Below, one piece after another: positions 1 to 48,585 of a stretch of 64,000 bases of DNA; positions within the stretch are counted from its first letter, which is position 1, and every line of letters begins with the position of its first letter. The notes beneath the pieces were generated by a model. That model was given only the letters and a program-made list of their open reading frames with translations. It did no database searches and was not told the origin of the DNA. Source of the DNA: Candidatus Nealsonbacteria bacterium (GTDB lineage Bacteria > Patescibacteriota > Minisyncoccia > Minisyncoccales > JANBVM01); assembly GCA_047456315.1 (NCBI GenBank), contig CP179889.1, positions 384,776 to 448,775 of the forward strand. The letters are read 5' to 3'. A program made the translations under genes and the position numbers.

Positions 1-110
1 TGATTGCCAGGGCAAAGGATAATTTAGAATTTGAAAGGCACAGGATAGAACGAGATAAAAGATTATTTCCTAAAAAGAAAAAAGCTAAAACTCGCTGTGA
101 ATACTTATGA
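1..110 (+). CDS. hypothetical protein, 3' end (partial at window edge)
   Basis: Frame open from window edge to TGA 108-110. Stop overlaps next ATG (ATGA). Confidence 0.3.
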   Translation, partial: IARAKDNLEFERHRIERDKRLFPKKKKAKTRCEYL

Positions 111-274
111 AAAAACTTATCAAACACCCTTTTATAGACATTACTCCACAACAACTTGAAGCGATGTCAAGAAAAGAACGCAATGACTATTTAACTAAGA
201 TTGGTTGGAACGTTAAAAGTCCAAACAAAAAGGCCGAACCAATTATTAAAATAAAACCTAAAAACTATGGTTGA
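107..274 (+). CDS. small hypothetical protein (55 aa)
   Basis: ATG 107, TGA 272-274. Overlaps both neighbours; tight packing typical of phage/mobile-element small genes. Confidence 0.3.
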   Translation: MKKLIKHPFIDITPQQLEAMSRKERNDYLTKIGWNVKSPNKKAEPIIKIKPKNYG

Positions 275-431
275 AATTGATTCAAAAGACTTACCCAAAA
301 CAGACAAAAGGTTTCAAGAGGAAAAAGCAGAGGCCAGAAGAAAACTTAGAAAGGGCTTACAGGAAGCGTTGGAATCCTCAAGAAAACTAAGTGCCAGTCT
401 TCAAAGACAGCTTAATGAGATTGGCAAATAA
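267..431 (+). CDS. small charged/coiled-coil protein (54 aa)
   Basis: ATG 267, TAA 429-431. Overlaps the previous ORF by 8 nt. Confidence 0.3.
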   Translation: MVEIDSKDLPKTDKRFQEEKAEARRKLRKGLQEALESSRKLSASLQRQLNEIGK

Positions 432-509
432 GAAAGCCGAATGGGGTTGTGAGGTTTGTTGACCATTGGAACTTCCAACCCCAAAACTAAAAACTAAATT
501 AAAAAAAAT

Positions 510-1121
510 ATGCCAAAATACGACAAGTATTTCAGACCAGCAGGAACGCCAAGTTTAGACGATGAGGAAGATTTGAAACAGAAGAAAAAAGAGGAGTTGT
601 GGGAAAAAGAAAACAAGAAGAAGTTAAAAGAATTAGCTTTAACAACTGAGATAGAGGGGAAATATAACTCAATGATAAGAGCAATTTTAACTGGCGAAAG
701 CAAACCGAATGAATTTTTAGGATTTGAGAAGTTAGATTATACTCCCGAAGAATACGCTAATTTGATGTTAGATAAATCTTTTAATATGTTGATTGGAAAA
801 AAGAAAGAGTTGAGAGAGGCAAGGGAATCAGCAGTAAAAAGAAATAGAGAAATGAAAGCACTGGCAAAAACAACTGGCAAGTCAGTAGATTTATTTAATT
901 TTGATAAGATATTTAAGGAGATGTCCGAAGTAGAAAGCAAAGAATATATTGAGAGGTTTTTCTTTGAAGAAGAATCTGTTGAGCCACACGATTTAAAACC
1001 TGAAATTGACAGAAAAGTAAAACCTAAGAAAGAAGAAAAAGAACCTGAAACAGAAACCGAACCCTTGCTTTATAAATCCCCTGAAGCCGAAGAAAATAAA
1101 GACTTTGATTGGGACAAGTAG
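510..1121 (+). CDS. hypothetical K/E-rich protein
   Basis: 203-aa ORF, highly charged, no recognisable motif. Confidence 0.5.
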   Translation: MPKYDKYFRPAGTPSLDDEEDLKQKKKEELWEKENKKKLKELALTTEIEGKYNSMIRAILTGESKPNEFLGFEKLDYTPEEYANLMLDKSFNMLIGKKKELREARESAVKRNREMKALAKTTGKSVDLFNFDKIFKEMSEVESKEYIERFFFEEESVEPHDLKPEIDRKVKPKKEEKEPETETEPLLYKSPEAEENKDFDWDK

Positions 1122-1263
1122 AGGTTAAAATCGTTTTAAAAGCTATTTAAACGCTTATAACAAGGTTTTTATAGCTAAGTTAGTATTTTATACCAATCCA
1201 AAGAAAAAGCTGAGCCTAAACTCAGCTAAAAAGAGAATCATCAAAACTTGATGTGAAGTTAAA

Positions 1264-1866
1264 CTAATTTTCTCTTTTAGTTTTCCACCAATCAATAATC
1301 GTTAGGAAGGTAAAAGTTCCAATGATTAAAAGCAGAAACAAAATTACCAATTCTAAATTCTGAGTTCCTAAACTGGCAAGGCCTAATCTTGATTTGAATT
1401 GATAAAAGAATTGCCTGATATAATCCCACCAATGCCAAGTTCCGATTACTTCAAAGGTTAAAACATTGGCTACCTTAACTGACAATGAAGTTCCATTAGA
1501 AGATTCAGTTTCTAATAAGCCAATCGCTACCCTTGTTTTATAGATTCCTGTCATAGCTTTTTTTGGAACTCTTAATTTACATTTTACAATTCCTGAAGCG
1601 TCTATCTTTATTTTTTTATCGCACTTAAACCAATCAACATCAGGCATTAAGTATTCGTTTCCCAATTCTTCTTTCGTGTAATTAAGAATTTCAACATCAA
1701 AAGATTTCCTTTCATCAAACCTATTCAGAATCGTAAAAGCCAATTCTATTTTCTTTCCTCTTTTCAAATCTGTTATATTCGTCTTGCTCGGCATTAAACC
1801 AAAATCAGCAGAACAAGAAAGTGCTATTGAGAAAAGAATAATTATTATTACAAATCTTTTAATCAT
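1264..1866 (-). CDS. secreted protein with C-terminal TM anchor
   Basis: N-terminal signal peptide (MIKRFVIIIILFSIALSCSA), beta-rich middle, C-terminal TM helix followed by WWKTKREN. Confidence 0.6.
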   Translation of the reverse strand: MIKRFVIIIILFSIALSCSADFGLMPSKTNITDLKRGKKIELAFTILNRFDERKSFDVEILNYTKEELGNEYLMPDVDWFKCDKKIKIDASGIVKCKLRVPKKAMTGIYKTRVAIGLLETESSNGTSLSVKVANVLTFEVIGTWHWWDYIRQFFYQFKSRLGLASLGTQNLELVILFLLLIIGTFTFLTIIDWWKTKREN

Positions 1867-1874
1867 AGTTCTTT

Positions 1875-2357
1875 TTAGAGGGCTTCAGCTAAAACAAAGA
1901 TATTCCAACTTTGAGCTGAAGTAGCTGAAGATGTTATTGGAGTTTGAAACATCATTTGGAAAGCTCCAATCTCTCCAACAATAAAACTACTATCAACGAT
2001 TGTGTAAGCAGAAGTGGTCAATGCAACTGCACCATCATCTCCTAAACTAATCCCTATGTAAAAGGATTCATCTCCTGCAATATCCATTACCCAATTTTCA
2101 CTATCACTTCCCATAACGCTGATTTTCGTTGTTATTAGTCCAGTATTTTCAGCAGTTGGAATTGGCTCTGTTAAATCTCTTGTTCTGTAAGTTGAAGCCA
2201 AATCAACATCTCCCCAGTCGTAAGTAAGAGGGGAAACTGAAAGAGATATATAAACAGGATTAGCTGTGTTAGAGATAACAGCAGAATTCTGCTGACCTAA
2301 AGCAATGCCTCCAACAGCCAACAAAAGAATTGTAATCGCTATAAGTTTTTTAATCAT
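1875..2357 (-). CDS. secreted hypothetical protein
   Basis: Signal peptide MIKKLIAITILLLAVGGIALG, S/T-rich mature part. 8 nt upstream of the next gene. Confidence 0.6.
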   Translation of the reverse strand: MIKKLIAITILLLAVGGIALGQQNSAVISNTANPVYISLSVSPLTYDWGDVDLASTYRTRDLTEPIPTAENTGLITTKISVMGSDSENWVMDIAGDESFYIGISLGDDGAVALTTSAYTIVDSSFIVGEIGAFQMMFQTPITSSATSAQSWNIFVLAEAL

Positions 2358-2531
2358 TTTAGTAAGCTGATTTATTTTAATAATTTAGCGTCAAGAACCG
2401 ACCTTTTGACTTTTCTTGATTCCTGTTGTAAGGTGTTTTTGCCAACCAAAAAAACTGATGTTAAAGCTGAAGTTTTTTGGTTGGTTTTATTTAGTTTTTA
2501 AATTTTAAAGTTGATTTCTAATACCTCTTTA

Positions 2532-2560
2532 ATTATCTAAAAATCAAAACTCTGTGTCAA
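2532..2560 (-). promoter_or_regulatory. sigma70-like promoter for 1875-2357 / 1264-1866
   Basis: On the minus strand: TTGACA (2555-2560), 17 nt spacer, GATAAT (2532-2537). Confidence 0.5.
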
Positions 2561-2597
2561 ATAACTTGGTTAAAGATTTTATACCTTTTTTCATATT

Positions 2598-2627
2598 GCA
2601 AAAAACACTCCCTTAATTGAGAATGTT
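2598..2627 (-). terminator. intrinsic terminator after cohesin-like gene (copy 1)
   Basis: 9-bp stem 2604-2612/2619-2627. Its two non-Watson-Crick pairs are G:U only on the minus-strand RNA. Followed by a U-run on that strand. Confidence 0.55.
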
Positions 2628-2743
2628 TTTGATTTTACTCCTTTGAAATTTCTTCTTTAATAAGCAATTAAGTCTGATTTTTCTGAAATAGTCTCCACTC
2701 CTTGATACTGATTAGAACCTACTAAATGTGAGTGCAAAATCTA

Positions 2744-3505
2744 TTAAGGTTTTTTACGACGCAATCTTAGAATAAAATAGACTAGAATTGCCAAGGTTAT
2801 TACCCCTACGAAAAGACCTATCCAAATATTATCAGTTCCAAAGGATAAAATATTACCGATTGTTGCTAAAAAAGTTGTTTGTCCTATTAATGTTGAAGTT
2901 TGTTCATCACCCGGCTCTTCTTCAGCTTGTGTAGATGTAGAAACAGTTTCTGTTATTACTTCTTCTTCTGTGATAACTTCTTCCTCTGGTTCAGGTTCAA
3001 GCTCAGACTCTGGCTCTGATATTGGCAATGCTATTACAACAGATGTTTGAGCTAACACGCCATTAAGAACATCTTGATTGGTTGCATCAAGAATAAAAGA
3101 ATTATCCCCTACCTTAATAACTCCGCTTCCAGTTTGTTCAGCTGAAAATGAAATAATACCAAAAGTTATAGGTTCAGAAATACCGCCAGGATAACCAGCT
3201 GTCTTAATAAGAAGCCCGTTTTCATTATCAATTAAGTCATATCCTTGTTGTGAAAGCACTATCCAGTTATTTGCCAAGGTAAACGTTCTTACCTCTAAAA
3301 GATTGGCTGGATATTGAAGTTCTACTTTCACTGTATAGTTCTTAACGCCTTGAGGATTGATTGTTATTACCTGGTTAAAATTTTGTCCTTGAGTAATATT
3401 AATACTTGCTGGTGAAAGTAAAAGAGCAGTAGATGCCAACACAGGCATTGCTAAGACTACTGTCCCCAATGCTCCTAATATAATCGTAAATATAGTTTTA
3501 TTCAT
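2744..3505 (-). CDS. cohesin-like surface anchor protein, copy 1
   Basis: Signal peptide, cohesin-like beta domain (ITQGQNF..VKVELQYPANLLEV..ITFGIISFSAEQTGSGVIKV), acidic E/P linker, C-terminal TM + RLRRKKP. ATG at 3505 preferred over the TTG at 3526. Confidence 0.65.
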   Translation of the reverse strand: MNKTIFTIILGALGTVVLAMPVLASTALLLSPASINITQGQNFNQVITINPQGVKNYTVKVELQYPANLLEVRTFTLANNWIVLSQQGYDLIDNENGLLIKTAGYPGGISEPITFGIISFSAEQTGSGVIKVGDNSFILDATNQDVLNGVLAQTSVVIALPISEPESELEPEPEEEVITEEEVITETVSTSTQAEEEPGDEQTSTLIGQTTFLATIGNILSFGTDNIWIGLFVGVITLAILVYFILRLRRKKP

Positions 3506-3510
3506 AGTTT

Positions 3511-4209
3511 TTATAGATTTACCCAATGAATCATTAATAAATTAAAATCAAAAATATCAACCTTTCCGTCGCTGTTAAAATCAGCAATATTATTTGTGCT
3601 TGTGCTTCCCCAGTTGACCATTAATGTATTGAAATCCAGAACATCAATCTTATCATCGTTATTGGTATCAACTGCCTGAGCATCTTCGCTAAGCTTACTG
3701 GTAGAGACAGGAGGAGTGTAGGTGCTACCGCCTCCACCTATCACTACTGGTGGAGTTATGTATTCTTCTTTATCACTAGTTCCTTTTAATGCAAGAGTGA
3801 AGGCGTATTCTCCTGGACAAAGATTTGAAGCAGTCTTTATTTTAAGATTTGATTGAGTCTCGCCCTTAACAATACTAAAGCCAATAAATACGAATTTATC
3901 GCCATTCCATTGCATTTTTGAAGTTTGACCATCATACCAAATGTCAATTCCTCCTATCTCAAAAGAATTTCCACAAATGCCTTGATAATCAATATCTAAA
4001 ATTGCTGTTCCAATAAGAATTTCACCAGTATTATTAGTAAGTTTCAGCTCAGCAACGCAACTATCACCGCTATATTGAATATCGCATTCTTTAGAAGATA
4101 GTTCTAAAATAAGTTTATCATTTTGAGCTTGGACAGAATAAACCCCAAAACAACCTCCTAAAAGAAAGGCTAAAAATAGAACTATTAAACTTTTTGATAT
4201 TTTATTCAT
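3511..4209 (-). CDS. secreted dockerin-domain protein, copy 1
   Basis: Signal peptide. C-terminus has two dockerin Ca-binding repeats: DTNNDDKIDVLDFNTLMVNW and DFNSDGKVDIFDFNLLMIHW. Confidence 0.75.
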   Translation of the reverse strand: MNKISKSLIVLFLAFLLGGCFGVYSVQAQNDKLILELSSKECDIQYSGDSCVAELKLTNNTGEILIGTAILDIDYQGICGNSFEIGGIDIWYDGQTSKMQWNGDKFVFIGFSIVKGETQSNLKIKTASNLCPGEYAFTLALKGTSDKEEYITPPVVIGGGGSTYTPPVSTSKLSEDAQAVDTNNDDKIDVLDFNTLMVNWGSTSTNNIADFNSDGKVDIFDFNLLMIHWVNL

Positions 4210-4212
4210 AAT

Positions 4213-4278
4213 CAGAGGTAAACTTACTTCAAAGAAATAAACTTACCTCTGATAGCCATTTCTTGTGATGGCTATCAG
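4213..4278 (-). promoter_or_regulatory. conserved double hairpin between subunit gene and dockerin gene (copy 1)
   Basis: 11-bp stem 4249-4259/4268-4278 and 9-bp stem 4213-4221/4243-4251 share 3 nt. The same architecture occurs at 36591-36655. Confidence 0.5.
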
Positions 4279-4286
4279 TTTTCCTT

Positions 4287-4898
4287 CTACTCTACTGGCA
4301 CCACTAAGTTTGTGAATCCATAGGTTCCTAATGCATTTGATTTGAATGTCACTACTATTTTGCTTACATCTGTTTCTCCTACATTCCAATCACTTGTTGC
4401 ACCATTTCCCTTACTATCAAATTTCACTGTGTTAGCATCAACTTGAACACAGATTGGAAGTGCGTCATTTTCTTTTCCATATCCGAGGTCGCCGTAAATA
4501 CTATCTACCCTAACTGTCACACTCTCAAAGTCAGCACAAGTTACTCCTAATGGATTTGTTACGATAGCTTCTTCATATCCCCAAATGTGTGCATCTGCCA
4601 TATTTGCACTCATTGTATAAAGTGTTACTGCTTCTCCACCCTTAGTTCCATCAATTGAAAGTGTTCCTGTCGTTGTCCAATCAGCTAAATTATGCGATTC
4701 TGCTGGGTAGGCATCTGCGTCCCAACCTTCAAGACCCAATGAAATTCCTACAACAATTGGTGATTCTACTGTTATATCTGCTTTTACGGTATTACTTAAA
4801 TAATCCACTAATGCAGCACTAACTACACTAGTTATTACTAAACCAATCACAACCATTGCAATAGGGCTCTTTTTAAGTAAATTCTTTATTTTGTTCAT
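4287..4898 (-). CDS. putative secreted fibre/major subunit protein (TasA/pilin-like leader), copy 1
   Basis: N-terminus MNKIKNLLKKSPIAMVVIGLVITSVVSAALVDYLSN, beta-rich body. Paralog of 35857-36567. Confidence 0.6.
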   Translation of the reverse strand: MNKIKNLLKKSPIAMVVIGLVITSVVSAALVDYLSNTVKADITVESPIVVGISLGLEGWDADAYPAESHNLADWTTTGTLSIDGTKGGEAVTLYTMSANMADAHIWGYEEAIVTNPLGVTCADFESVTVRVDSIYGDLGYGKENDALPICVQVDANTVKFDSKGNGATSDWNVGETDVSKIVVTFKSNALGTYGFTNLVVPVE

Positions 4899-5059
4899 AT
4901 TTTCTTACTATTTTCAATTACTTCTTATACTGATATAACCCCTCAGTTTTGGGACGACCTTTTTTGATAGATAATTTAGTCTATATTAAGCTCTTGGGGG
5001 TGTCAAGTAGGCGTTTGAAAGATGTCAAGTGATGGTAAAAAATTACATATTCAGAACTA

Positions 5060-5089
5060 TTGACATATTTCTATGGACAAGTGTATAAT
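5060..5089 (+). promoter_or_regulatory. sigma70-like promoter
   Basis: TTGACA 5060-5065, 18 nt spacer, TATAAT 5084-5089. Just upstream of ORF 5098-5268. Confidence 0.5.
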
Positions 5090-5097
5090 GAAAGTAT

Positions 5098-5268
5098 ATG
5101 AGCAATAAAAAAACTAAAATAACGATAGATAGGACAAGATACAGACAATTTAAAAGAGACCAAAAACGCCTTTTAAAAATTAAGGGTTATATTGATTCAA
5201 TTAAACAAATTCTTGATAGATGGGACAAAGGCAAAGGCAAAAGAAAAATAACTATAACAGATTATTAA
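5098..5268 (+). CDS. small basic protein (56 aa)
   Basis: ATG 5098, TAA 5266-5268. K/R-rich, preceded by a strong promoter. Confidence 0.35.
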   Translation: MSNKKTKITIDRTRYRQFKRDQKRLLKIKGYIDSIKQILDRWDKGKGKRKITITDY

Positions 5269-5277
5269 ACAAATTTA

Positions 5278-5526
5278 ATGAAAAGACAAACATTCATTAA
5301 AATCATTGCTGGATTAACTATTCTTGCTAATGTCCCATCAGCAGTAAATAAGAGCTTATTAGCATTCTTGATAGACGCTACTTTTAGCACAGCTATTAAT
5401 GTTGTTTTTTTAATGGTAATTTTTATGATTTATGATTTTGCTGTTAAGCAAATTAAATCTATAAAAGAAAATGAAAAAGAAAAGGAAAAGAAGGTGGGAA
5501 AAACTGCCTCAGGTTCTAATAGATGA
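5278..5526 (+). CDS. small membrane protein
   Basis: 82-aa ORF with two hydrophobic segments and a K/E-rich tail. Confidence 0.35.
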   Translation: MKRQTFIKIIAGLTILANVPSAVNKSLLAFLIDATFSTAINVVFLMVIFMIYDFAVKQIKSIKENEKEKEKKVGKTASGSNR

Positions 5527-5641
5527 AATCAGAGAACAACACAAGGGAGGTTGTTATAAGAACGAGATAGCTCGGTTTTTAGGAATAGATAAACATTCAG
5601 TTTTTAATTATGTTGAGAAAAAAACAATGGTCGGTAAATAA
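5471..5641 (+). CDS. small helix-turn-helix protein (56 aa)
   Basis: Alternative frame overlapping the end of 5278-5526. Basic N-terminus then an HTH-like YKNEIARFLGIDKHSVFNYVEK. Confidence 0.4.
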   Translation: MKKKRKRRWEKLPQVLIDEIREQHKGGCYKNEIARFLGIDKHSVFNYVEKKTMVGK

Positions 5642-5722
5642 AAGATAATTAAATAATAGTTGCAGAGTAGGGGTTGGAAGTTTAGGCAACTATTCTTACA
5701 ACTCCTACCCTTAACAAAAATT

Positions 5723-5857
5723 ATGGCAAAAAAACAGAAAAGAAAGAAGCTGACTAAACTAGTTGTGAAATTTGAACCGAGTTCTAATCATAAAGAAGAA
5801 TTTGCACAATTTGTAAATGATGTTTTGTCTAATAAAAATAATAAAAAAGAATTATGA
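5723..5857 (+). CDS. small basic protein coupled to recombinase (candidate accessory/RDF)
   Basis: MAKKQKRKK... 44 aa. Stop overlaps the recombinase ATG (ATGA at 5854-5857). Confidence 0.4.
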   Translation: MAKKQKRKKLTKLVVKFEPSSNHKEEFAQFVNDVLSNKNNKKEL

Positions 5858-7446
5858 AAAAAGTAGCTATCTATGTAAGGGTATCAACCCAAAGACAAAA
5901 AGATGAAAGGACTATTGAGAGCCAATTATCAGCATTGAGGGAAATCTGTAAAGACTTTAAAATAGTTAAAGAATATGTTGATGATGGTTGGAGTGGTGGA
6001 ACTTTAGCAAGACCCTCTTTGGATAAAATGAGAGATGACGCTAAAGAAGGTTTATTTAAGGCTCTTTACATTTACTCTGCTGATAGGTTGAGCAGAGACC
6101 ATCTTAACCAGCTCATAGTATTAAAAGAATTGGAAAAAGAAAAGATTGAAGTAGTCTTTAAGAATAGAGTATTAACAGAAGAAAATAAGCTCTTAACAGA
6201 TATTGAGAGCTTATTAGCTGAACACGAGAAAAAGCAATTTATGGAGAGAAGTCGCAGGGGCAAATTACACAAAGCAAAGAATGGGAAAATCATCAGGAGT
6301 TGTGCCTCTTATGGTTATAGATTTATTAAAGACAAGAAAGGGGAATGGCAGTTAAAGATAGAACCTGAAGAAGCAAAGATTGTAAAACTTATCTTCAGTC
6401 TTTATCTTGAACACCAGACCATTACTGGAACAAGCAAAGCATTTCATTCAAAGAAAATACGCTATGGGGATAATAAGATTTGGAGACCGCAGGGAATTGC
6501 CAGAGTTCTAAAGAATGAGACTTATGTCGGTAATTGGTATTATAACAAGACTAAAAGCTCCGAGCCAAAGAATAAGAGAATGAAGTTTAACAGAAAAGTT
6601 AAATCAAGCAAGGTAAAGAACGACAGGAAAGATTGGTTAATGGTTAAAGTCCCTGCCATAATTGACAGAGGAACATTTGATAAGGTTCAGGAGTTAAGGA
6701 AAAGGAATTTTAAACTCTATGGCGAAACAAAACAAACCTATCTTTTGGGTGGCTTGATGAGGTGTGGTAAGTGTGGCTCAAGAATAGTAGGGATTTGCCA
6801 TCGGAATAAGTATTTTTATTATGTATGTAGTTCAAAACCCAAGAGTTTTCCTGAAGTCTTTAAGTGTGATTTCAAAGCAATAAAGAAACAGGAGATTGAG
6901 AGCTTTGTTTGGAGTAAGATAAAAGAAGCATTACAGAATCCTAAAATCCTTTTTCAATATATTTTCCAATTAAAAAAAGGAGACAAGGATAGCCAGTCAT
7001 TAGAAGAATTAAAACAAGGATTACTGGAACATAAAGTTAATACAAGAAGAAAGAAAGATGAGGTGTGGCGACTTTGGGACATAGACCTTATGGGCAGAGA
7101 TGAATTTGAGGCAAAGATAGAGAACTATACTTTGATTGAAAGAGAAATTGAAAGAGACCTCAAGGGAATTGAAGTAAAATTGGCTCAAACTACTATTAAG
7201 CAGGATATAATCAGCAGTCTAAAAGAATTTGCCAGATTGACCAAAAATCAGCTTGACACATTGAAACCTAAGCAGATAAAGAAACTGCTTAGGAGCATTA
7301 TAAAGACGATTGATTATAATCCTGACACAAAGGCAATGAAAATAGTTGGCTATATCCCAATTACTAAGCCTTCTCCAAAGAAAATTAAGGAACTAATGAA
7401 GCTACCTATACCAACCTTTGACTTCGTCTCAACACAAGAAAAGTAA
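5854..7446 (+). CDS. large serine recombinase (phage-integrase type)
   Basis: Resolvase catalytic N-terminus VAIYVRVSTQRQ, recombinase domain, Zn-ribbon CGKCGSR...YYVCS, C-terminal coiled coil. 530 aa. Confidence 0.93.
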   Translation: MKKVAIYVRVSTQRQKDERTIESQLSALREICKDFKIVKEYVDDGWSGGTLARPSLDKMRDDAKEGLFKALYIYSADRLSRDHLNQLIVLKELEKEKIEVVFKNRVLTEENKLLTDIESLLAEHEKKQFMERSRRGKLHKAKNGKIIRSCASYGYRFIKDKKGEWQLKIEPEEAKIVKLIFSLYLEHQTITGTSKAFHSKKIRYGDNKIWRPQGIARVLKNETYVGNWYYNKTKSSEPKNKRMKFNRKVKSSKVKNDRKDWLMVKVPAIIDRGTFDKVQELRKRNFKLYGETKQTYLLGGLMRCGKCGSRIVGICHRNKYFYYVCSSKPKSFPEVFKCDFKAIKKQEIESFVWSKIKEALQNPKILFQYIFQLKKGDKDSQSLEELKQGLLEHKVNTRRKKDEVWRLWDIDLMGRDEFEAKIENYTLIEREIERDLKGIEVKLAQTTIKQDIISSLKEFARLTKNQLDTLKPKQIKKLLRSIIKTIDYNPDTKAMKIVGYIPITKPSPKKIKELMKLPIPTFDFVSTQEK

Positions 7447-7976
7447 TGAAGAAATTGGGTGTTTTTGATTTAGAAAACATGGAAATACCTCCTAGGATTT
7501 ATAACTTTGATGAAAGAAAATGGGTTAAAAAACAAATTCCAGATGGTAAATTTCTTAAAACAGCTTCAGTAACTGAATTCTTAGAAAGAGCTGACAAGTT
7601 AATACTCTTGCCTAATTTAAAAACTCATTCATACGCTCAATTTACCGGGGCATTAAAACTCTCAGTTGGTTTTATGAGGCCGATTGAAAGGGTTCGTTTA
7701 CACCTGAAGAATCTACAGGAGAAAATAGCTGAATTGAATAAATTGATTAACCCTCATCTAATAATTATGGATGGGAGAAAGTGCTTTATAAATAAAGGGC
7801 CAGCTTCAGGGGAATTAGCTGAGCCAAACTTAATCCTTGCTTCAGAGAGTCGAATAGATATTGACGTTGAAGGAATAAAAATAATCCAGAGTTTTAAAGG
7901 CAATTCTTTGAAAAACATTAATCCTTTAGAAATGCCTCAAATTAAAAAAGCAATAGAATTTGGAATTGAACAATGA
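7446..7976 (+). CDS. DUF362-family protein, C-terminal part only (possibly truncated by insertion)
   Basis: Matches the DUF362 C-terminal half (LLPNLKTHSYAQFTGALKLSVGF...IIMDGRKCFINKGP). The N-terminal part expected for the family is absent. ATG overlaps the recombinase stop (TAATG). Confidence 0.55.
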   Translation: MKKLGVFDLENMEIPPRIYNFDERKWVKKQIPDGKFLKTASVTEFLERADKLILLPNLKTHSYAQFTGALKLSVGFMRPIERVRLHLKNLQEKIAELNKLINPHLIIMDGRKCFINKGPASGELAEPNLILASESRIDIDVEGIKIIQSFKGNSLKNINPLEMPQIKKAIEFGIEQ

Positions 7977-9247
7977 GAAAAATTAATAAATTGTTTAAGA
8001 ATAGATATTTTGCAGCTTTTTTTATTTTTGCAATACTGTTTTTTTTAAAAGATTATTTAATTCCTTTGGAAGAATCTATTTCTTTACTGGAACAGGAATA
8101 TAAAACAGAAGAGGAGTATGGATTTAAAAAGGATCAAAATAAAGAGATTTTAGCTGATAAAGAGCTTTTACCTGCTACGATTGTGAAAACATCTACCTCT
8201 ACTGAAAGTGAAATTAAAAGATCAACCTTTAAGGCGCCAGAGATAGTAAAAGCAATTTATTTAACAAGCTGGTCAGCTGCCACTTCTTATAGGATAAATT
8301 ATGCCATTGACTTAGCTAAGAGCACAGAGATTAATGCAGTAGTTATTGATATTAAGGACTGGTCAGGACATATCAGCTATAATACTGAGGTGCTTGAAGC
8401 TCAAGAATATAATGCTGAGAGATTTTTAATAGCAGACGTTAAAGCGCTTGTTGAAAGATTTCACAAAGAGGGGATTTACACCATTGCCAGAATCACTGTT
8501 TTTCAGGACCCTGTTTTAGCCTGGTCAAGACCTGATTTAGCAGTCAGAAGAAAAACAGATAAGTCATTGTTATGGCTTGACAGGTCAGGATTAGCTTGGG
8601 TTGATCCTGCTGCTAAAGAATCATGGGATTATAATATTGCTATTGCTAAAGATATTTTAAATCAAGGTTTTGACGAATTGAATTTTGACTATATTCGTTT
8701 TCCTTCTGATGGTGATCTGAGCGATTTGAGTTTTTCTTTTTGGGACAGCACTAGCACTACAAGGGTTTCAGTAATTAGTGATTTCTATGCTTACTTAAGG
8801 GAAAAGCTTCCTGATGCTGTTTTGTCAGCTGATCTTTTCGGGCTTATTACAGAGAAATCTGATTTAGGTATTGGTCAGAAAATTGAACACGCTTATCAGT
8901 ATTTTGATTTTGTTTGTCCTATGGTTTATCCTTCTCATTATGCGCCAATGTATTTGGGTTATGAAAATCCTGCTGAGTATCCTTATGAAGTGATTAAAAA
9001 CGCAATGGAAAATGGTTTAATTAAACTTAATGCTTTTAGAAATACCACTTCAACAAAAGCCAAGCTGCGGCCATGGCTTCAGGATTTTGACTTAGGGGCT
9101 GATTATGGGAAAGAAGAGGTAAAATTAGAAATTAAAGCTGTTAAAGACGCCCTAGGAGATGATTTTTCAGGTTTTATGCTGTGGAGCCCAGATAATTTTT
9201 ATACCAAAGAAGCTCTTTCAGCGACAACCCAAGATTTATTTAAATAA
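7973..9247 (+). CDS. putative glycoside hydrolase-like protein (DUF4015/GHL family)
   Basis: N-terminal TM. TIM-barrel-like blocks INAVVIDIKD, YTIARITVFQD, NFDYIRFPSDG. Confidence 0.65.
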   Translation: MRKINKLFKNRYFAAFFIFAILFFLKDYLIPLEESISLLEQEYKTEEEYGFKKDQNKEILADKELLPATIVKTSTSTESEIKRSTFKAPEIVKAIYLTSWSAATSYRINYAIDLAKSTEINAVVIDIKDWSGHISYNTEVLEAQEYNAERFLIADVKALVERFHKEGIYTIARITVFQDPVLAWSRPDLAVRRKTDKSLLWLDRSGLAWVDPAAKESWDYNIAIAKDILNQGFDELNFDYIRFPSDGDLSDLSFSFWDSTSTTRVSVISDFYAYLREKLPDAVLSADLFGLITEKSDLGIGQKIEHAYQYFDFVCPMVYPSHYAPMYLGYENPAEYPYEVIKNAMENGLIKLNAFRNTTSTKAKLRPWLQDFDLGADYGKEEVKLEIKAVKDALGDDFSGFMLWSPDNFYTKEALSATTQDLFK

Positions 9248-27542: not shown

Positions 27543-28451
27543 ATGCGATATACATATAAACAATTTCAAAAGGATTTCCCAGGCGACAACGCCTGTTTAG
27601 AATACATTTTCAAGGCTCGTTTTGGGAATAATCCAACCTGTCCAAAATGTGAAAAATTAAATTCTTTTTACAAGGTCGGTAAGAGAAGGGCTTATGCCTG
27701 TTCCTGTGGTTATCAAATTTATCCAGCCGTTAACACTATTTTTAATAAATCTTCAACCAGTTTAATCAGCTGGTTTTTTGCTATTTATTTAATGAGCTCT
27801 GCTAAGAATGGAGTATCTGCTAAAGAACTACAAAGGCATTTAGGAGTTAGTTATAAGACTGCTTTAAGAATGGCTCATAAGATAAGGAGTCTAATGAAAC
27901 AAGATAATTCAATGTTAGAGGGAGTAGTTGAAATTGATGAAATGTATGTTGGAGGTAATCCATATAGAAATTTAAGAAAAAGATATATTAAAAAAACTCC
28001 TGTAATCGGAATAGTAGCTCGTAATGGTAAAGCAAAAGCAGTAGTGGTTGAGGAAGCAGATACAAGAAGTGCTTTTAAATTATTAAAGGATAATGTTAAA
28101 GTTGGTTCTAAAATAATGAGCGACGGCTCGCGTCTTTATAGAAATAAACTTGAAAAGCTGGGCTTTAAGCACAGCATTGTGAAGCATAGTGAGAATGAAT
28201 ATGTTAGAGGAGATGTTTACACTAACAGCATTGAACAGTTCTGGAGTCAGATTAAAAACTCAATCAGAGGCACTTATCATTCTGTAAATCCTAAGTACCT
28301 GCAGACTTACGTCGACGAGTTCGTCTACCAGTATAACCACCGCACTTTGAAGAATTCCTCTTTGTTTGAGACTTTGCTTGTCCGCCTTTGCCCACAGCAC
28401 GGCTTAAAAGAGAATGAAAGCGTCGCTTGGTGGTCGTTGGTTTCTTCATAG
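27543..28451 (+). CDS. IS1595-family (ISXO2-like) transposase
   Basis: N-terminal transposase Zn-ribbon (CPKCEK...YACSCG), then a DDE_Tnp_IS1595 pattern (VEIDEMYVGG, MSDGSRLY, TNSIEQFWSQIK, YLQTYVDEFVYQYNHR). Confidence 0.9.
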   Translation: MRYTYKQFQKDFPGDNACLEYIFKARFGNNPTCPKCEKLNSFYKVGKRRAYACSCGYQIYPAVNTIFNKSSTSLISWFFAIYLMSSAKNGVSAKELQRHLGVSYKTALRMAHKIRSLMKQDNSMLEGVVEIDEMYVGGNPYRNLRKRYIKKTPVIGIVARNGKAKAVVVEEADTRSAFKLLKDNVKVGSKIMSDGSRLYRNKLEKLGFKHSIVKHSENEYVRGDVYTNSIEQFWSQIKNSIRGTYHSVNPKYLQTYVDEFVYQYNHRTLKNSSLFETLLVRLCPQHGLKENESVAWWSLVSS

Positions 28452-35404: not shown

Positions 35405-35856
35405 ATTTTTTCATTTTTATTTAAAAAACCCATTGCTGGACAATTTGTTTTAAATTGAATTTTTTAAAACAGATAGGACAACATCTAGGACAAAAAGTTC
35501 TGAGATACTAAATCTTATTTAAGAATATTTAAACTTTAATTTAATCGTAATCTTTTATTCTTTATAAATGTTATTTAAAATATTATTTAGTCGAAAAACT
35601 AGAGCTTATAAAAGCCGAAAAAGAGCATGCTTGACAGCTTTATTTACATTATGATAGGGTTTCCTAAAGGCTCAATATTTCTTAATGACCCATCAAGAGA
35701 GGCTACAATGAAAATGTGGGAAATAAATAATTTTGAAATCAAAAATAAAGTCAATTAGAAGGGATTGGCTTTTTATTTTGTTTTAACAAAGGTCGACCTA
35801 AAGATAAAGGTAGATTAATTAGGAGAAAAATAATTAATTAAAATCAAAAAGAAATT

Positions 35857-36567
35857 ATGAAAAAACTAAAAAATTTACTTAAAAAGAGCCCTATTGCAAT
35901 GATTGTGATTGGTTTAGTAATAGCTAGTGTAGTTAGTGCTGCTTTAGTGGATTATTTAAGTAATACCATAAAAGCAAAAATAACAGTAGAATCACCAATG
36001 GCTGTAGGAATTTCATTAGGTCTTGAAAGTTGGGCAACAGCGAAATGTTACAGACCTGCTGGATGTCCTGCCCCAGCCGATTGGACTCCTGATATTCCAT
36101 TGGATTGTGATGACTATCCAGGTGGATGGGTAGATTGCTATCCAGCAAAATCACATAGTGAAAGTGATTGGACAAATACAGGAACACTTGTAATACCTGA
36201 CATTTATGGAGGAGAGCCATTAACACTCTACATAATGAGTGCAAATCTGGCAAATGCAACAACTACAGGATATGAGGAAATTATTATAACAAATCCATTA
36301 GGAGTAACTTGTGCAGACTTTGAGAGCATAACAAGCAGATATGATAGTATTTATGGCAGTCTTGGATATGGAGAAGAATCTGTGTGGACACCTGGTGATG
36401 GCGGATGTACTCAGGGAGAAGATGTAAACACCATACAGTTCGGTAGCACTGAATCAACATGGGGTGCAGGAGAAACAGATGTAAGTAAAATGGTAGTGAC
36501 ATTCAAGTCAAATGCATTAGGAACCTATACAGTAAAGACAAGAGTAGTTCCAGTAGTAGAATACTAA
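35857..36567 (+). CDS. putative secreted fibre/major subunit protein (TasA/pilin-like leader), copy 2
   Basis: MKKLKNLLKKSPIAMIVIGLVIASVVSAALVDYLSN leader. Carries a Cys-rich insert absent from copy 1. The C-terminal block GETDVSK.VVTFKSNALGTY is shared. Confidence 0.6.
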   Translation: MKKLKNLLKKSPIAMIVIGLVIASVVSAALVDYLSNTIKAKITVESPMAVGISLGLESWATAKCYRPAGCPAPADWTPDIPLDCDDYPGGWVDCYPAKSHSESDWTNTGTLVIPDIYGGEPLTLYIMSANLANATTTGYEEIIITNPLGVTCADFESITSRYDSIYGSLGYGEESVWTPGDGGCTQGEDVNTIQFGSTESTWGAGETDVSKMVVTFKSNALGTYTVKTRVVPVVEY

Positions 36568-36590
36568 TAGAGTAAGATAATAAAGAAAAC

Positions 36591-36655
36591 CTGATAGTTA
36601 TTCCTTGTATAGCTATCAGAGGTAGGTTTATTTTTTTGAAGTAAATCTACCTCTG
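36591..36655 (+). promoter_or_regulatory. conserved double hairpin between subunit gene and dockerin gene (copy 2)
   Basis: 10-bp stem 36591-36600/36610-36619 and 13-bp stem 36617-36629/36643-36655, ending 3 nt before the ATG. A:U in copy 1 is replaced by G:C here (compensatory). Confidence 0.55.
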
Positions 36656-36658
36656 ATT

Positions 36659-37366
36659 ATGAATAAAATATCAAAAAGTTTAATAGTTCTATTTTTAGCT
36701 TTTCTTTTTGGAAGTAGTTTTGGGATTTTTTCTATCCAAGCTCAAAATGATAAACTTATTTTAGAAGTAATTATGGAGTGTGATATTCAATATACAGGGA
36801 ATAGCTGTATTGCTGAATTAAAACTTACTAATAATACTGGTGAAATTCTTGACGGAGAAACATATTTACATATAGATTATAAGGGTATTTGTGGAGATGG
36901 TTTTTTTGATGGAGAAGGAATTGAAGCTCAATTTTCTATTACAGATAATAGTTGGTTAGACTTCTCGGGCTGGGAAAATGGAACAACAGCGGTTTCAGGT
37001 TTTGAAATTGCTAAGGATGAAACTCAATCAGAACTTAAAATAAAGACTGTTTCAAATCTTTGCCCAGGGGAATACATTTTCATTCTTGAATTAAAAGGAA
37101 CTACTGATAAAGAAGAATACATAACTCCACCAGTAGTGATAGGTGGTAGTGGTTATTATACTCCTCCTGTCTTTACTAGTAAGCTTAGCGAAGCTGCTCA
37201 GGCAGTTGATGCCAATAAAGATGATAAAATTGATGTTCTGGATTTTAATGTATTAATGATTAACTGGGGCAGTACAACAGCTGGCAATATAGCTGATTTT
37301 GACAGCGACGGAAAAGTTGATATTTTTGATTTTAATTTATTAATGATTCATTGGGTAAATCTATGA
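36659..37366 (+). CDS. secreted dockerin-domain protein, copy 2
   Basis: Signal peptide. C-terminal dockerin repeats DANKDDKIDVLDFNVLMINW and DFDSDGKVDIFDFNLLMIHW. Confidence 0.75.
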   Translation: MNKISKSLIVLFLAFLFGSSFGIFSIQAQNDKLILEVIMECDIQYTGNSCIAELKLTNNTGEILDGETYLHIDYKGICGDGFFDGEGIEAQFSITDNSWLDFSGWENGTTAVSGFEIAKDETQSELKIKTVSNLCPGEYIFILELKGTTDKEEYITPPVVIGGSGYYTPPVFTSKLSEAAQAVDANKDDKIDVLDFNVLMINWGSTTAGNIADFDSDGKVDIFDFNLLMIHWVNL

Positions 37367-38121
37367 AAATTATGAATAAAACTATATTTACGGTTATATT
37401 AGGAGTATTAGGAACAGCAGTCTTAGCAGCGCCTGTGTTGGCATCTACTGCTCTTTCACTTTTACCAACAAACATTAATGTTGCTCAAGGGCAAAATTTC
37501 AGTCTGGTAACAGCAATCAACCCTCAAGGCGTTAATAATTATACGCTTAAATTAGAGCTTCAATATCCAGCCGACCTTTTAGGGGTGAAAAGATTTACTT
37601 TGGCAAATAACTGGATGGCGCTTTCAGAGCAGGGATATGATTTGATTGATAATGAAAACGGGCTTCTTATTAAAACAGCTGGTTATCCTGGAGGCGTTTC
37701 TGAACCTATAACCTTTGGTATTATTTCATTTTCAGCTAAAAAAACCGGAAGCGGAGTTATTAAAGTAGGGGATAATTCTTTTGTCCTTGACGCAACTAGT
37801 CAAGATGTTCTAAACGGCGTATTAGCTCAAACATCTATTGTAATAACATCACCAACATCAGAATCCGAGCCTGAGCCTGAACCAATATCAGAAGAACTAG
37901 AAGAACCAGAAGAGGTGATAATAGAAACTGTTTCTACGTCTACACAAGCTGAAGGCGATGAACAAACTTCAACATTAATAGGACAAACAACTTTCTTAGC
38001 GGCAATCGGTAATATCTTATCTCTTGGAACTAATAATGTTTGGCTGGCTCTTTTCGTAGGGCTGATAATCTTGGCAATTCTAATCTATTTTATTCTAAGA
38101 TTACGTCGTAAAAAATCTTAA
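37363..38121 (+). CDS. cohesin-like surface anchor protein, copy 2
   Basis: ATG 37363 overlaps the upstream TGA (ATGA). Signal peptide, cohesin-like domain, acidic linker, C-terminal TM + RLRRKKS. Confidence 0.65.
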   Translation: MKIMNKTIFTVILGVLGTAVLAAPVLASTALSLLPTNINVAQGQNFSLVTAINPQGVNNYTLKLELQYPADLLGVKRFTLANNWMALSEQGYDLIDNENGLLIKTAGYPGGVSEPITFGIISFSAKKTGSGVIKVGDNSFVLDATSQDVLNGVLAQTSIVITSPTSESEPEPEPISEELEEPEEVIIETVSTSTQAEGDEQTSTLIGQTTFLAAIGNILSLGTNNVWLALFVGLIILAILIYFILRLRRKKS

Positions 38122-38135
38122 AGGAGAAACTCATA

Positions 38136-38160
38136 AAAATCGCTCTTTGAGCGGTTTTTT
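38136..38160 (+). terminator. intrinsic terminator
   Basis: CGCTC-TTT-GAGCG stem-loop flanked by an A-run and followed by GTTTTTT. Confidence 0.7.
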
Positions 38161-38191
38161 AATAGAATAATAAAGGGTCACTCAATCTATG

Positions 38192-38304: not shown

Positions 38305-38712
38305 ATGCAAGTAAAAAAAATCACTCATAGGACGCTACAAAAACTTATACAAAAGATTGCCGATAAAGCCGGTTATGACATTTTAGACAATAGACGGCTT
38401 GTTTTTAACAGGAATCCATCTCTTTATTATCAACCAGACCTAACGCTTCTTAAGAAAAGTTCACTTATTGTGGTTGAGGTTGAATTAACAACAGATAGCA
38501 GGAAATCACTAACTGGCGACATAGTGCGTGCAGGACTATCTGGCGCAAAAACATTTATAGGTATCGTGAAAGACTCAAAAACAGCCAATGCCATAGAAAA
38601 ATATGGAGAAGTATTAACGGATCGTATTTGTGAAATGTCTGAACTAAAAACTTATGGTCTCGCGGTTAATGATAGAGAATTTGTTGATAAATTAAAATTA
38701 ATGTTAAAATAA
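38305..38712 (+). CDS. small hypothetical protein, possible PD-(D/E)xK nuclease-like fold
   Basis: 135 aa. YYQPDL...LIVVEVELT resembles a PD...ExE/K core. Assignment is weak. Confidence 0.4.
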   Translation: MQVKKITHRTLQKLIQKIADKAGYDILDNRRLVFNRNPSLYYQPDLTLLKKSSLIVVEVELTTDSRKSLTGDIVRAGLSGAKTFIGIVKDSKTANAIEKYGEVLTDRICEMSELKTYGLAVNDREFVDKLKLMLK

Positions 38713-38719
38713 AAAACAT

Positions 38720-40435
38720 ATGGAGTTTAAAAAAGAACATCCATTATATTTCGAATCTAGTGGACGATTAGTGATTATTCTCGGAAGAGAATCCATTTCT
38801 AATCCTAATATAGCCCTGCTTGAAGTGATTAAAAATTCTTATGATGCAGACGCTAAAGAAGTTGATTTGACCTTTAAAAATCTTACTAAACCTCTTCACG
38901 AGAATGAAGTTATTATCGCTGATGATGGAAATGGTATGACAGAAGAAAACATCAAGCAGTACTGGATGAAACCGGCCACTGACAATAAGTTGCACGACCC
39001 TTTTACTAAGAAATATAAACGTCGTAAAATCGGTGAAAAGGGAATTGCTAGATTCGCGCTTTCTACTTTAGCCAAAGAAATCACACTTACCACGAAACCA
39101 GCCGGGAAATTAAAAGGTTATCAATTATATATTAACTGGCGTGAATTCGAACAAGAAGGGGGTTCTTTTGAAAAAATTCCCATTAGCTTTAAATCTTTTA
39201 GGAAAAAGAAGGCAGAACATGGCACTATAATTAAATTATCGACCTTGCGATTTAAATGGAATAAAGAACGCCTAAACAAATTTATCCGAGAAGTTGAAAT
39301 GATTACCCCGCCCACTGCGAAAGTAGATAATTTTAAAATTTCTGTGCATGTTCCTGATTTTCCTGATATAAGCGATCAAGCTTTAAAGAATAAATTTTTG
39401 AAGATTGCACCATACTGCTTTACAGCAACGCTCAATAAAAAAGGATTTTTGACTTATCGTGCTAAAACCCCTAAATCGAATAAGAAATATGGACCAGAAA
39501 AGACCACAAGATATTCATGCGGCCCAGTAGAATTTAGTTTTTGGTTTTTGCCTAGAAATAAAGGTAATTATGATGTTCTTGGTATCGATCTAAAGAGAAT
39601 TAAAATAGAAGAAATAAAGAAATTTCTCGATGAGTGGGGAGGTATAAAACTATATCGTGATGACTTGAGAGTAAAGCCATATGGAGATTTTGGGAACGAC
39701 TGGTTGGGACTTGAATCGTTGAGAATTAACGATCCGAGTGTTATGCCAGGCAATGATCAGGTTTGTGGCTATGTGAAGATTACTCGAAAAGATAATCCAG
39801 AAATAATCGATACCTCAACCCGAGAAGGAATTATCAACAATGTTGCTTTTCGGGATCTAAAGCAATTTTGTACAGAAGCGGTTAATTTTTTCGGCACTAT
39901 CAGAAAAGTTGTTGAGGAAAAAAGGGAATTTAAAAAGAAAGGTAAACGTAAGAAAAAAATAAAAGAACTGCAGAAACTGACGATACTTGGGCCCAAGGAA
40001 ACTTTTCTCGATTTCGGCAGGAAATATCCTGAGGTCTTTTACGTAAGACTTGAAAGCGAAATCAACCATGCTTTCCGCTATAATTTGCCCAACGCCTCAC
40101 TTATGCTTGCCAGAAAAATGGTGGAAAATCTGGCTTACAATCTAATGGAAGAAAAATTTGCTAGCAATAAAGGATTAAGATGGGATATTAAAAGAGACCG
40201 ACCATTGGGTTTTGCTAGATTGATAAGAAATCTTTCTGATAACGCATCATATTTTGATGGAGAGCAAAAAGTGCTCGTAAAAAAACTTATAAAGTTGATA
40301 AACATATTTAGAAGAGAGGCAAATCTTAAGGTTCATCAGATCATTGATTATCTTGAAGATAAAGAAGAGCTTAAATTGCTAAAAATACCAGATATAGTAG
40401 AAATTTTACTTAAACTAATTCGAAAAAATAAATAA
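38720..40435 (+). CDS. GHKL (HATPase_c/MORC-like) ATPase
   Basis: Bergerat fold boxes: N box LLEVIKNSYDADA, G1 IIADDGNGM, G2 IGEKGIARF. The C-terminal helical region resembles DUF4145-type modules of R-M proteins. Confidence 0.75.
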   Translation: MEFKKEHPLYFESSGRLVIILGRESISNPNIALLEVIKNSYDADAKEVDLTFKNLTKPLHENEVIIADDGNGMTEENIKQYWMKPATDNKLHDPFTKKYKRRKIGEKGIARFALSTLAKEITLTTKPAGKLKGYQLYINWREFEQEGGSFEKIPISFKSFRKKKAEHGTIIKLSTLRFKWNKERLNKFIREVEMITPPTAKVDNFKISVHVPDFPDISDQALKNKFLKIAPYCFTATLNKKGFLTYRAKTPKSNKKYGPEKTTRYSCGPVEFSFWFLPRNKGNYDVLGIDLKRIKIEEIKKFLDEWGGIKLYRDDLRVKPYGDFGNDWLGLESLRINDPSVMPGNDQVCGYVKITRKDNPEIIDTSTREGIINNVAFRDLKQFCTEAVNFFGTIRKVVEEKREFKKKGKRKKKIKELQKLTILGPKETFLDFGRKYPEVFYVRLESEINHAFRYNLPNASLMLARKMVENLAYNLMEEKFASNKGLRWDIKRDRPLGFARLIRNLSDNASYFDGEQKVLVKKLIKLINIFRREANLKVHQIIDYLEDKEELKLLKIPDIVEILLKLIRKNK

Positions 40436-40449
40436 TAGCTTGTATATAA

Positions 40450-41382: not shown

Positions 41383-41401
41383 AAAGTTTGTCGATAGACA
41401 T

Positions 41402-45669: not shown

Positions 45670-45683
45670 AGCGAGGGGAGTGC

Positions 45684-45711
45684 TTGACACCGTGTTTTGG
45701 CACGGTACAAT
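45684..45711 (+). promoter_or_regulatory. sigma70-like promoter facing the tyrosine recombinase gene
   Basis: TTGACA 45684-45689, 16 nt spacer containing the palindrome ACCGTG..CACGGT, TACAAT 45706-45711. Confidence 0.6.
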
Positions 45712-45723
45712 ATATATAGATAT

Positions 45724-48566: not shown

Positions 48567-48585
48567 ACAATATTTGTTCTTTACC

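Follow-up and report, generated by a model that had tools for sequence, protein, structure and literature searches.

The subject of this report is an apparent mobile element at the left end of a 64,000-nt stretch of DNA (hereafter, the window), which comes from the Candidatus Nealsonbacteria bacterium contig CP179889.1 (GCA_047456315.1, positions 384,776-448,775 of the forward strand) and has a G+C content of about 32%. A gene for a large serine recombinase adjoins there a truncated gene of the DUF362 family, and the opposite strand beside it carries five genes, designated here A to E, whose products have signal-like N-termini by hydropathy. A second copy of the A-B-C group (copy 2) is found further along the window. 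Judging by the sequence, the simplest reading is a site-specific insertion into DUF362 with the right end at about 7425 and the left end beyond the window start. The features on which the argument depends are the following.

7426-7976, plus strand: 3' remnant of the host DUF362 gene, residues ~81-264 of 264 (Pfam, tblastn)
7423-7427: right junction of the putative insertion, attR- or attL-type (blastn, alignment, anchored ungapped comparison)
5854-7446, plus strand: large serine recombinase, 530 aa (Pfam, PHROG)
4978-5089, both strands: divergent promoter-like region (pattern scan)
4287-4898, minus strand: A, 203 aa (list of open reading frames, ORFs)
4214-4276, minus strand: tandem double hairpin between A and B (fold, z = -5.9)
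3511-4209, minus strand: B, 232 aa (ORF list, Pfam)
2744-3526, minus strand: C, 260 aa (ORF list, hydropathy)
2596-2630, minus strand: terminator-like hairpin with a U-run after C (12-bp stem; -12.1 kcal/mol, z = -4.4)
2532-2560, minus strand: sigma-70-like promoter match upstream of D-E (TTGACA-17-GATAAT, 11/12; consensus match only)
1875-2357, minus strand: D, 160 aa (ORF list, hydropathy)
1264-1866, minus strand: E, 200 aa (ORF list, hydropathy)
1208-1227, minus strand: terminator-like hairpin with a T-run 3' of E (pattern scan; fold -11.3 kcal/mol, z = -3.4)
35829-38121, plus strand: copy 2 of A-B-C, with neither D-E nor a recombinase (ORFs, blastn)

The DUF362 ORF is partial and begins at the recombinase stop codon; for this reason a split gene was suspected and the locus was compared with that of relatives. 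On the Pfam profile the ORF covers only positions 68-197 of 200. Relatives were retrieved through the neighboring DUF4015 gene. This search places the genome among Patescibacteria, where the nearest sequences are two metagenome-assembled genomes, L010 (a 636-kb contig) and L009, with 84-85% amino acid identity in DUF4015; Candidatus Nealsonbacteria are more distant relatives than these two. In both L010 and L009 the DUF4015 gene is immediately preceded by an uninterrupted DUF362 gene coding for 264 aa, and neither the cluster nor the recombinase is present at this locus. A tblastn comparison of the intact L010 protein with the window recovers residues 81-264 only (87% identity), and the first 80 residues were not found anywhere in the 64 kb. 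The blastn homology of the two loci to the window begins at 7431. The anchored ungapped comparison places the break at 7423-7427, where the identity leaps from random to about 85%.

The DNA to the left of this break is equally foreign to the relatives. None of their upstream genes (uppS, FAD oxidoreductase, pyrG, rplI, S41 peptidase) occurs in the window. Conversely, A to E, the recombinase and the small ORFs of the region were found in none of the loci of 25 relatives, and the 9.4 kb upstream of DUF362 in L010 or L009 contains no counterpart of 1-7425. Since both the 5' part of DUF362 and the upstream genes of the relatives are absent from the window, the inserted DNA should span at least 1-7425, A to E included. 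We consider the insertion together with its cargo to be highly probable. This is what the earlier note, made from the sequence alone, had suspected in taking the surface module for cargo of an integrated and mobile element; the empty site in two sister genomes and the sharp junction bear the suspicion out, and no relative was found to carry the cluster at this locus without a recombinase, the DUF362 gene of L010 and L009 being uninterrupted. The insertion, with its empty sites in two sister species, also provides a concrete attB candidate for this lineage.

The recombinase itself has the domains of an integrase. Pfam recognizes Resolvase (4.4e-29, residues 4-145), Recombinase (1.7e-19) and Zn_ribbon_recom (3.8e-14), the motif YVRVST is found at residues 7-12, and among PHROGs the protein belongs to the integrase family phrog_95 (7.8e-92). 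A resolvase catalytic domain followed by Recombinase and zinc-ribbon domains in a long C-terminal part is the composition of large serine recombinases of the integrase type. The best phage relatives are the recombinases of Wolbachia phage WO (33% identity), whose gene lies at most about 2 kb from the record end in three of the four WO records listed; a scan of viral contigs with the recombinase gave no match. An integrase is usually positioned at the end of the integrated element. Here the junction precedes the recombinase stop by 18-20 bp, so that the last 6-7 codons and the stop codon (7444-7446) are supplied by host DUF362 DNA. The same detail bears on the suggestion that the contig is chimeric at about 7425, a conceivable artefact for a sequence from a metagenome-type assembly. 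The join coincides with the 3' end of a complete integrase gene, whose frame is terminated by host sequence, and it interrupts a conserved gene. Integration, and not a random mis-join, leaves such a signature, and we regard an artefact as extremely improbable.

A different account would leave the surface cluster to the native chromosome and attribute to the recombinase no more than a small insertion (about 5000-7425), or else an inversion or rearrangement that it mediated and whose breakpoint happens to lie beside the cluster. It is favored by the unseen left junction, by the lack of phage or integrative and conjugative element (ICE) hallmark genes in 1-5000, by the base composition (the inserted region cannot be distinguished in GC and skew profiles across the window) and by the second A-B-C copy, which is located after gltX in an ordinary chromosomal setting. 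Yet under this account the 5' part of DUF362 and uppS are expected directly to the left of about 5000, and the window contains neither; 1-7425 has no counterpart in the relatives' 9.4 kb; and by its type the recombinase is an integrase rather than an invertase. A small insertion of the recombinase only is unlikely because it would leave the 5' half of DUF362 just to the left of about 5000. We therefore consider the native origin of the cluster improbable and retain the insertion that includes A to E.

Some points nevertheless weigh against this insertion. Its left junction is outside the window, and the inclusion of A to E is deduced from the fact that the remaining part of DUF362 does not appear within 7.4 kb; that a rearrangement or deletion took place later is also conceivable. 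Neither phage nor conjugation hallmark genes were found in 1-7425 by Pfam, NCBIfam or PHROG. The visible 7.4 kb thus lacks the virion and packaging genes by which a prophage is recognized, which is still compatible with a prophage. The element, at least 7.4 kb long, is described here as a prophage or other integrative element. The phage GenBank collection searched with the DNA 1-7430 returned no match. A tRNA target site was considered and ruled out, there being no tRNA genes in the window. Flanking direct repeats are uninformative as att evidence in such cases, since serine recombinases leave an overlap of only 2 bp.

Elements that a serine recombinase has integrated into a gene, and that carry accessory cargo next to the integrase, are already known. 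Prophages and elements of this class interrupt host genes, e.g., SPbeta in spsM and skin in sigK; Wolbachia phage WO is another example. The present element resembles them in having a three-domain serine recombinase at its extreme end, an insertion within a coding sequence and cargo with its own signals beside the integrase. It differs in its host, a candidate phyla radiation (CPR) genome of about 0.65 Mb, in its target, DUF362, and in that one junction is seen and that the visible part has no structural, replication or transfer genes.

The cargo lies on the strand opposite to the recombinase and appears to consist of two units. Copy 1 of A-B-C runs on the minus strand in the order reported by the earlier note, which also described a terminator after C and a separate promoter for the two genes that follow. 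The terminator (2598-2627) was missed by the pattern scan and was recovered by folding as a 12-bp hairpin with a U-run, which none of 200 shuffled sequences folded as well; it stands between A-B-C and D-E. The promoter-like site at 2532-2560 is present as described and is the second-best sigma-70-like match within 8 kb. A similar site for A is found at 4978-5006 (minus strand, TTGACA-17-TAGACT). On the other strand, a 12/12 match (5060-5089, TTGACA-18-TATAAT) precedes the small ORFs leading to the recombinase.

D and E were described by the earlier note as exported, E being anchored in the same way as C, and hydropathy agrees. D has an N-terminal signal-like segment and a mature part of about 135 aa. 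E has a signal-like segment, an ectodomain of about 125 aa, a transmembrane segment at 173-191 and the basic tail DWWKTKREN, in the layout also seen in C. Searches of Pfam, NCBIfam and PHROGs with D and E gave no match (their families give insignificant hints only), and word-index searches returned only the window's own proteins. An exhaustive HMMER search with D, by contrast with the word-index searches, found ten relatives that align from end to end (27-35% identity), all about 160 aa long except one of 274 aa, and an additional partial match in a 1741-aa protein. A metagenome scan with a three-member D alignment gave two short contigs, one of them new, and a scan of viral contigs with D gave no match. 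An E homologue lies directly downstream of the D homologue in L038/L039 (32%, 2e-18), L042 (28%, 1.5e-5) and L044. D and E are thus genuine genes, as shown by homologues paired in this order on other contigs and by the confident structural model of D.

The place of this pair is another matter. The earlier note regarded D and E as two extra genes of the A-B-C module. By family hidden Markov models (HMMs), D and E were found only together, and never beside A-family genes except in the window, so that no case of D-E travelling with A-B-C elsewhere was found; three other contig sequences have D-E without A-B-C. The pair is therefore to be seen as an independent two-gene cassette, and its adjacency to A-B-C is peculiar to this element. 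We also considered D-E as a diverged copy of A-B. This idea was rejected: profile-profile comparison gives a probability of 6% for D against the A family and of 0.4% for E against the B family, and the architecture alone is parallel.

The AlphaFold2 (AF2) model of D has a predicted local distance difference test score (pLDDT) of 87, and above 90 for the mature part. Its top Foldseek matches are PapE, CfaB, FimA, FimG, PapA, Csu, CupE and the Sulfolobus 0406 thread, nearly all of them donor-strand pilins (E 3e-3 to 5e-2, template modeling (TM) scores 0.3-0.5). The D-family profile matches AbpX with E 0.018. In the viral structure library the model matches uncharacterized phage proteins only. 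The mature N-terminus of D has conserved alternating hydrophobic residues that are unpaired in the model. We propose, on the strength of this model, that D is a secreted donor-strand fibre subunit with a pilin-like immunoglobulin (Ig) fold. As its architecture and gene linkage suggest, E would be the membrane anchor, base or assembly partner of D. Its ectodomain is probably Ig-like, the Ig/PapD-like hints being faint (Cep192_D5 0.0018, WxLIP_PGBD 0.17).

A gene in L040 (666-2495), right after a D-family gene, encodes a 609-aa S8 subtilisin whose C-terminal residues (about 130) match the D-family HMM (2e-16). This subtilisin may be an enzyme incorporated into or docked on a D-type fibre; a D-like domain on it is what one expects if the domain is a fibre-incorporation module.

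Protein A has a signal-anchor and a beta-sandwich, with the conserved motif SAALVxYLSNxVxAxIxVxSP right after the hydrophobic segment. Metagenomes contain 115 homologues besides the two copies of the window (117 members), and no Pfam domain is found in any of them; searches of structure databases by sequence with the A family gave nothing informative. In the nine A-family loci inspected, a partner gene adjoins A, downstream in all but one, and its product consists of a signal peptide, at least one Ig-like domain and, after a linker rich in glycine or acidic residues, a transmembrane helix with a basic tail. All nine lack D and E. The AF2 model of A (pLDDT 86, alignment of 103 sequences) matches AvmM (2.6e-5), the AbpA pilus 7ueg (3.9e-4, TM-score 0.40/0.43), the TasA fibre 8aur (7.6e-4) and CanA 9hdi (7.6e-4) in Foldseek. 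All four are among the first eight matches (TM-scores 0.25-0.47), and pilin and CBM (carbohydrate-binding module) beta-sandwiches score similarly to these TasA-type folds. A appears TasA-superfamily-like at the level of the fold and not of the sequence family. We propose from the model that A is a major fibre subunit of the TasA-superfamily type, which probably polymerizes by donor-strand exchange.

Some A loci are of separate interest. In L005 (8881-9414 and 3441-5857) a TATA-binding protein is encoded on the contig of an A-family gene and its anchored partner, and so the A family occurs in archaea as well as bacteria. In L008 (10001-11743) A and the anchored partner are immediately followed by a 166-aa small serine resolvase, and a tyrosine integrase lies 5 kb upstream. 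L007 and L008 both have A within a few kb of recombinase genes, a context only suggestive of mobility; PHROG checks on L002, L007 and L008 gave integrase, helicase and radical-SAM families and no virion genes.

In both copies of the window, and in contig L034, which has the full A-B-C trio, the anchored partner of A is replaced by B and C. B begins with a signal peptide, continues with a probable Ig-like domain and ends in a dockerin-like pair of Ca-binding repeats (two repeats of the DxNxDxKIDxxDF type). Its match in PDB is the dockerin module of C. perfringens NagH (2jnk/2ozn, E 0.008), and its orthologues are found in L034 (8e-96) and in phage contig L001. In C a signal peptide is followed by a cohesin-like domain, which an acidic linker connects to a transmembrane segment (234-252) and the tail RLRRKKP; the orthologue of C in L034 is significant at 3e-72, whereas no match to C was found among PDB sequences or in the scan of viral contigs. 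The last 16 nt of B are shared with the start of C. In domain make-up the two proteins resemble a cohesin-dockerin pair, both domain assignments being under the curated cut-offs. We propose from the sequences that C is the membrane anchor holding B, on which B would dock non-covalently.

The interval between A and B is occupied by a double hairpin that ends 6 nt before the B start codon, with an AGAGG sequence buried within. It also occurs in copy 2 (36593-36654, plus strand), in L034 (about 2586-2644) and in phage contig L001 (about 7970-8032). In the alignment of copy 1, copy 2 and L034, compensatory changes are found in 4 of the 26 pairs; other A loci have a terminator-like hairpin at the same position. 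The double hairpin may serve as an attenuator or stabilizer that sets the ratio of A to B and C. Such a structure would fit an excess production of A as a major subunit.

Taken together, we suggest the following picture. Positions 1 to about 7425 would be the right-hand part of a mobile element, inserted by its large serine recombinase into the DUF362 coding sequence, and the DNA beside the recombinase would be cargo in the form of two independent surface cassettes with promoter-like and terminator-like signals of their own, from which they could be expressed in the integrated state. In the first cassette, abundant secreted A would polymerize, the double hairpin after A would lower read-through, and B and C would be translationally coupled; the single stalk-and-anchor protein of other A loci would be split here into B and C, which re-associate non-covalently. 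In the second, D fibres would be tethered or primed by E at the outer face of the cell membrane. An integrated element with two surface-fibre cassettes as cargo is, as a whole, our favored explanation and seems to us somewhat better than an even bet; the fibre-and-anchor mechanism, taken separately, could go either way.

A number of results weigh against the functional part of this explanation. Structural matches are weak: the TM-scores are 0.25-0.5, and the E-values range from 1e-5 to 1e-3 in the case of A and from 3e-3 to 5e-2 in that of D. A does not match the TasA family PF12389 (Peptidase_M73/TasA), and the locus has no dedicated signal peptidase. B scores 21.6 bits against Pfam Dockerin_1 (E 2.5e-4), below the gathering cut-off of 22.9, and Pfam Cohesin is matched by one of the three C orthologues (E 0.0055), with none listed for the window's C. 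Profile-profile comparisons do not relate D to A or E to B. Finally, sigma-70-like matches are no more frequent in the region than in shuffled sequence, which applies also to the 11/12 site upstream of D-E.

These weak fold matches for A and D leave room for another view, namely, that the insertion is real and that D-E, possibly also A-B-C, are non-polymeric surface proteins serving receptor masking or superinfection exclusion, or else a WxL/DUF916-like surface complex. Membrane-anchored morons beside prophage att sites often serve exclusion. A W-x-L-like motif is kept in the D family, and one of the three E-family members touches WxLIP_PGBD (DUF916) at E 0.17, which is not significant. On the other hand, the WxL domain of Pfam matches none of the 11 D-family members, and the Foldseek list of D consists mostly of donor-strand pilins rather than generic Ig domains. 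Incorporation into a polymer would accord with the alternating-hydrophobic N-terminus and with the protease that carries a D-like domain, and the hairpin after A fits the stoichiometry of a major subunit. We consider non-polymeric proteins unlikely, and we prefer the two fibre cassettes.

Comparison with known surface systems shows both likeness and difference in each case. TasA-superfamily loci are described as comprising a major subunit, minor or tip subunits and membrane anchors (PMC9245690; 10.64898/2026.01.04.697558). The A locus resembles such loci (tapA-sipW-tasA of B. subtilis; archaeal AbpA/AbpB, AbpX, CanA, Tafi) in the jelly-roll or beta-sandwich model of A, its N-terminal strand-like motif and the neighboring anchored accessory protein; it differs in that A lacks a PF12389 match, a SipW-type peptidase is missing, and the anchor function would be divided between a dockerin-like protein and a membrane protein of cohesin-like type. 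With cellulosome scaffoldin and C. perfringens NagH systems, B and C share two dockerin-like repeats in one protein and a cohesin-like domain, linker and cell anchor in the other, and their genes overlap. Unlike those systems, the locus encodes neither enzymes nor carbohydrate-binding modules, and one transmembrane helix takes the place of S-layer homology (SLH) domains or a sortase substrate as the anchor; both domain matches are sub-cut-off.

D has the size of chaperone-usher and other donor-strand pilins (PapA/E, FimA/G, CfaB, Csu, 0406) and a donor-strand-like N-terminal extension of alternating hydrophobic residues. The D-E unit, bounded by terminator-like sites, contains no usher and no two-domain periplasmic chaperone, however, and the sole partner of D in four loci is the one-domain anchored E; the likeness is at the fold level only (best E 3e-3). 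An outer membrane is not expected in this lineage. The WxL/DUF916 (Csc) clusters of Firmicutes also combine a small secreted beta protein with a W-x-L-like motif and a membrane-anchored Ig-like protein, but the window locus has no LPXTG partner.

Copy 2 and phage contig L001 bear on the horizontal movement of these genes. In copy 2 the A-B-C ORFs occupy 35857-38121 (plus strand). By blastn, 2744-4926 corresponds to 38121-35829 with 79-90% nucleotide identity, i.e., from the C stop to about 28 nt upstream of A, and the proteins are identical at 70% (A), 75% (B) and 80% (C) of positions. The two copies have no flanking DNA in common; consequently, D, E and the promoter region of copy 1 are unique to the copy-1 locus, and the divergent promoter-like region 4978-5089 is outside the duplicated segment, which ends at 4926. 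The divergence between the copies is similar to that between this genome and its sister species (80-87% DNA identity). The variable region of B in copy 1 matches L034, and that of B in copy 2 matches phage L001.

L001 (IMGVR_UViG_3300031864_000234) is a phage contig with TerL (1.4e-98) and TerS (1.3e-10). Its region 6985-9238 encodes a 321-aa A-like protein and a 400-aa B homologue, with signal peptides nearly identical to those of the window. The B homologue has an FN3-like domain followed by an acidic stalk and a transmembrane anchor, i.e., its own stalk and anchor in place of the dockerin. Scans of viral contigs with A and with B returned L001 only. The phage contig, the divergence of the copies and the sharing of B variable regions fit transfer between genomes, and surface structures appear to move between genomes in this way; the element itself may still be mobile.

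The surface cassettes on the element, together with a phage that has a B homologue and an A-like gene, suggest that the cell surface is altered by lysogenic conversion. The lifestyle of Patescibacteria is one of attachment to other cells, in which surface appendages are believed to govern the choice of host; apart from type IV pili, little is known of these appendages or of their exchange. Two families without annotation enter here, the A family (115 further members in bacteria and archaea) and the D-E pair (about ten D relatives and three of E). The models of A and D, both confident, point to donor-strand fibres, and the functional statements made from them are predictions. In the split anchor, a cohesin-dockerin-like pair would replace the covalent stalk and anchor of related A loci. 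One may go further and suppose that D-E is a minimal two-gene pilus system, not described before, of cell-wall-poor, single-membrane CPR bacteria, in which the D pilin polymerizes without an usher on the membrane-tethered one-domain Ig protein E (chaperone and anchor in one), and that D-E and A-B-C are exchanged by temperate phages or integrative elements as lysogenic-conversion cargo. If true, this would change the attachment of these bacteria to hosts or to each other; we offer it as a speculation with the odds clearly against it.

The remaining features of the left part of the window are listed below.

1 to ~110 (running in from the window start), 107-274, 267-431 and 510-1121, plus strand: small, highly charged ORFs (ORF list)
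2441-2484: strong inverted repeat in the D-E leader, downstream of the promoter-like site and ahead of the D start codon (fold)
5098-5268, 5278-5526, 5471-5641 and 5660-5857, plus strand: four small ORFs 5' of the recombinase (ORF list)

The earlier note placed the cluster between phage-like small ORFs and a large serine recombinase. The domains of the recombinase confirm its part of the statement; for the label phage-like, the searches gave weak hints only. The ORFs of 5098-5857 have weak helix-turn-helix and terminase-small-subunit hints (E 0.002-0.009), the helix-turn-helix hints being in one ORF. Those of 1-1121, which fall within the inserted DNA, have no Pfam or NCBIfam match, weak PHROG hints only and no counterpart in the loci of the sister genomes. 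The inverted repeat 2441-2484 folds with -13.7 kcal/mol on the minus strand and -17.4 on the plus strand (z of about -3.6 to -3.7). A T-run follows it on the plus strand, though no plus-strand gene terminates there.

Several further observations concern the surroundings of copy 2 and the rest of the window. After copy 2, the region 38305-41812 encodes a 135-aa ORF, a GHKL-type ATPase (HATPase_c_3, 4e-21), a C5 cytosine methylase (5e-64) and a Vsr endonuclease (1e-15), and is a defence or restriction-like island. A 40-nt terminator-like hairpin occurs at 38133-38172, directly after copy-2 C, and again, inverted and with 92% identity, at 52223-52262. An IS1595/ISXO2-type transposase (DDE_Tnp_IS1595, 2e-35) is encoded at 27543-28451, and a tyrosine recombinase (Phage_integrase, 2e-38), which may be a housekeeping Xer, at 45680-46753. 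Two genes at 57645-58416 and 62563-63383 (212 and 284 aa) are paralogues with 85% nucleotide identity; each encodes a membrane segment at the N-terminus, and neither belongs to a Pfam family. A 58-nt direct repeat (48512-48569 and 48865-48922, 90% identity) lies just downstream of the anti-sigma-like gene 47409-48566.

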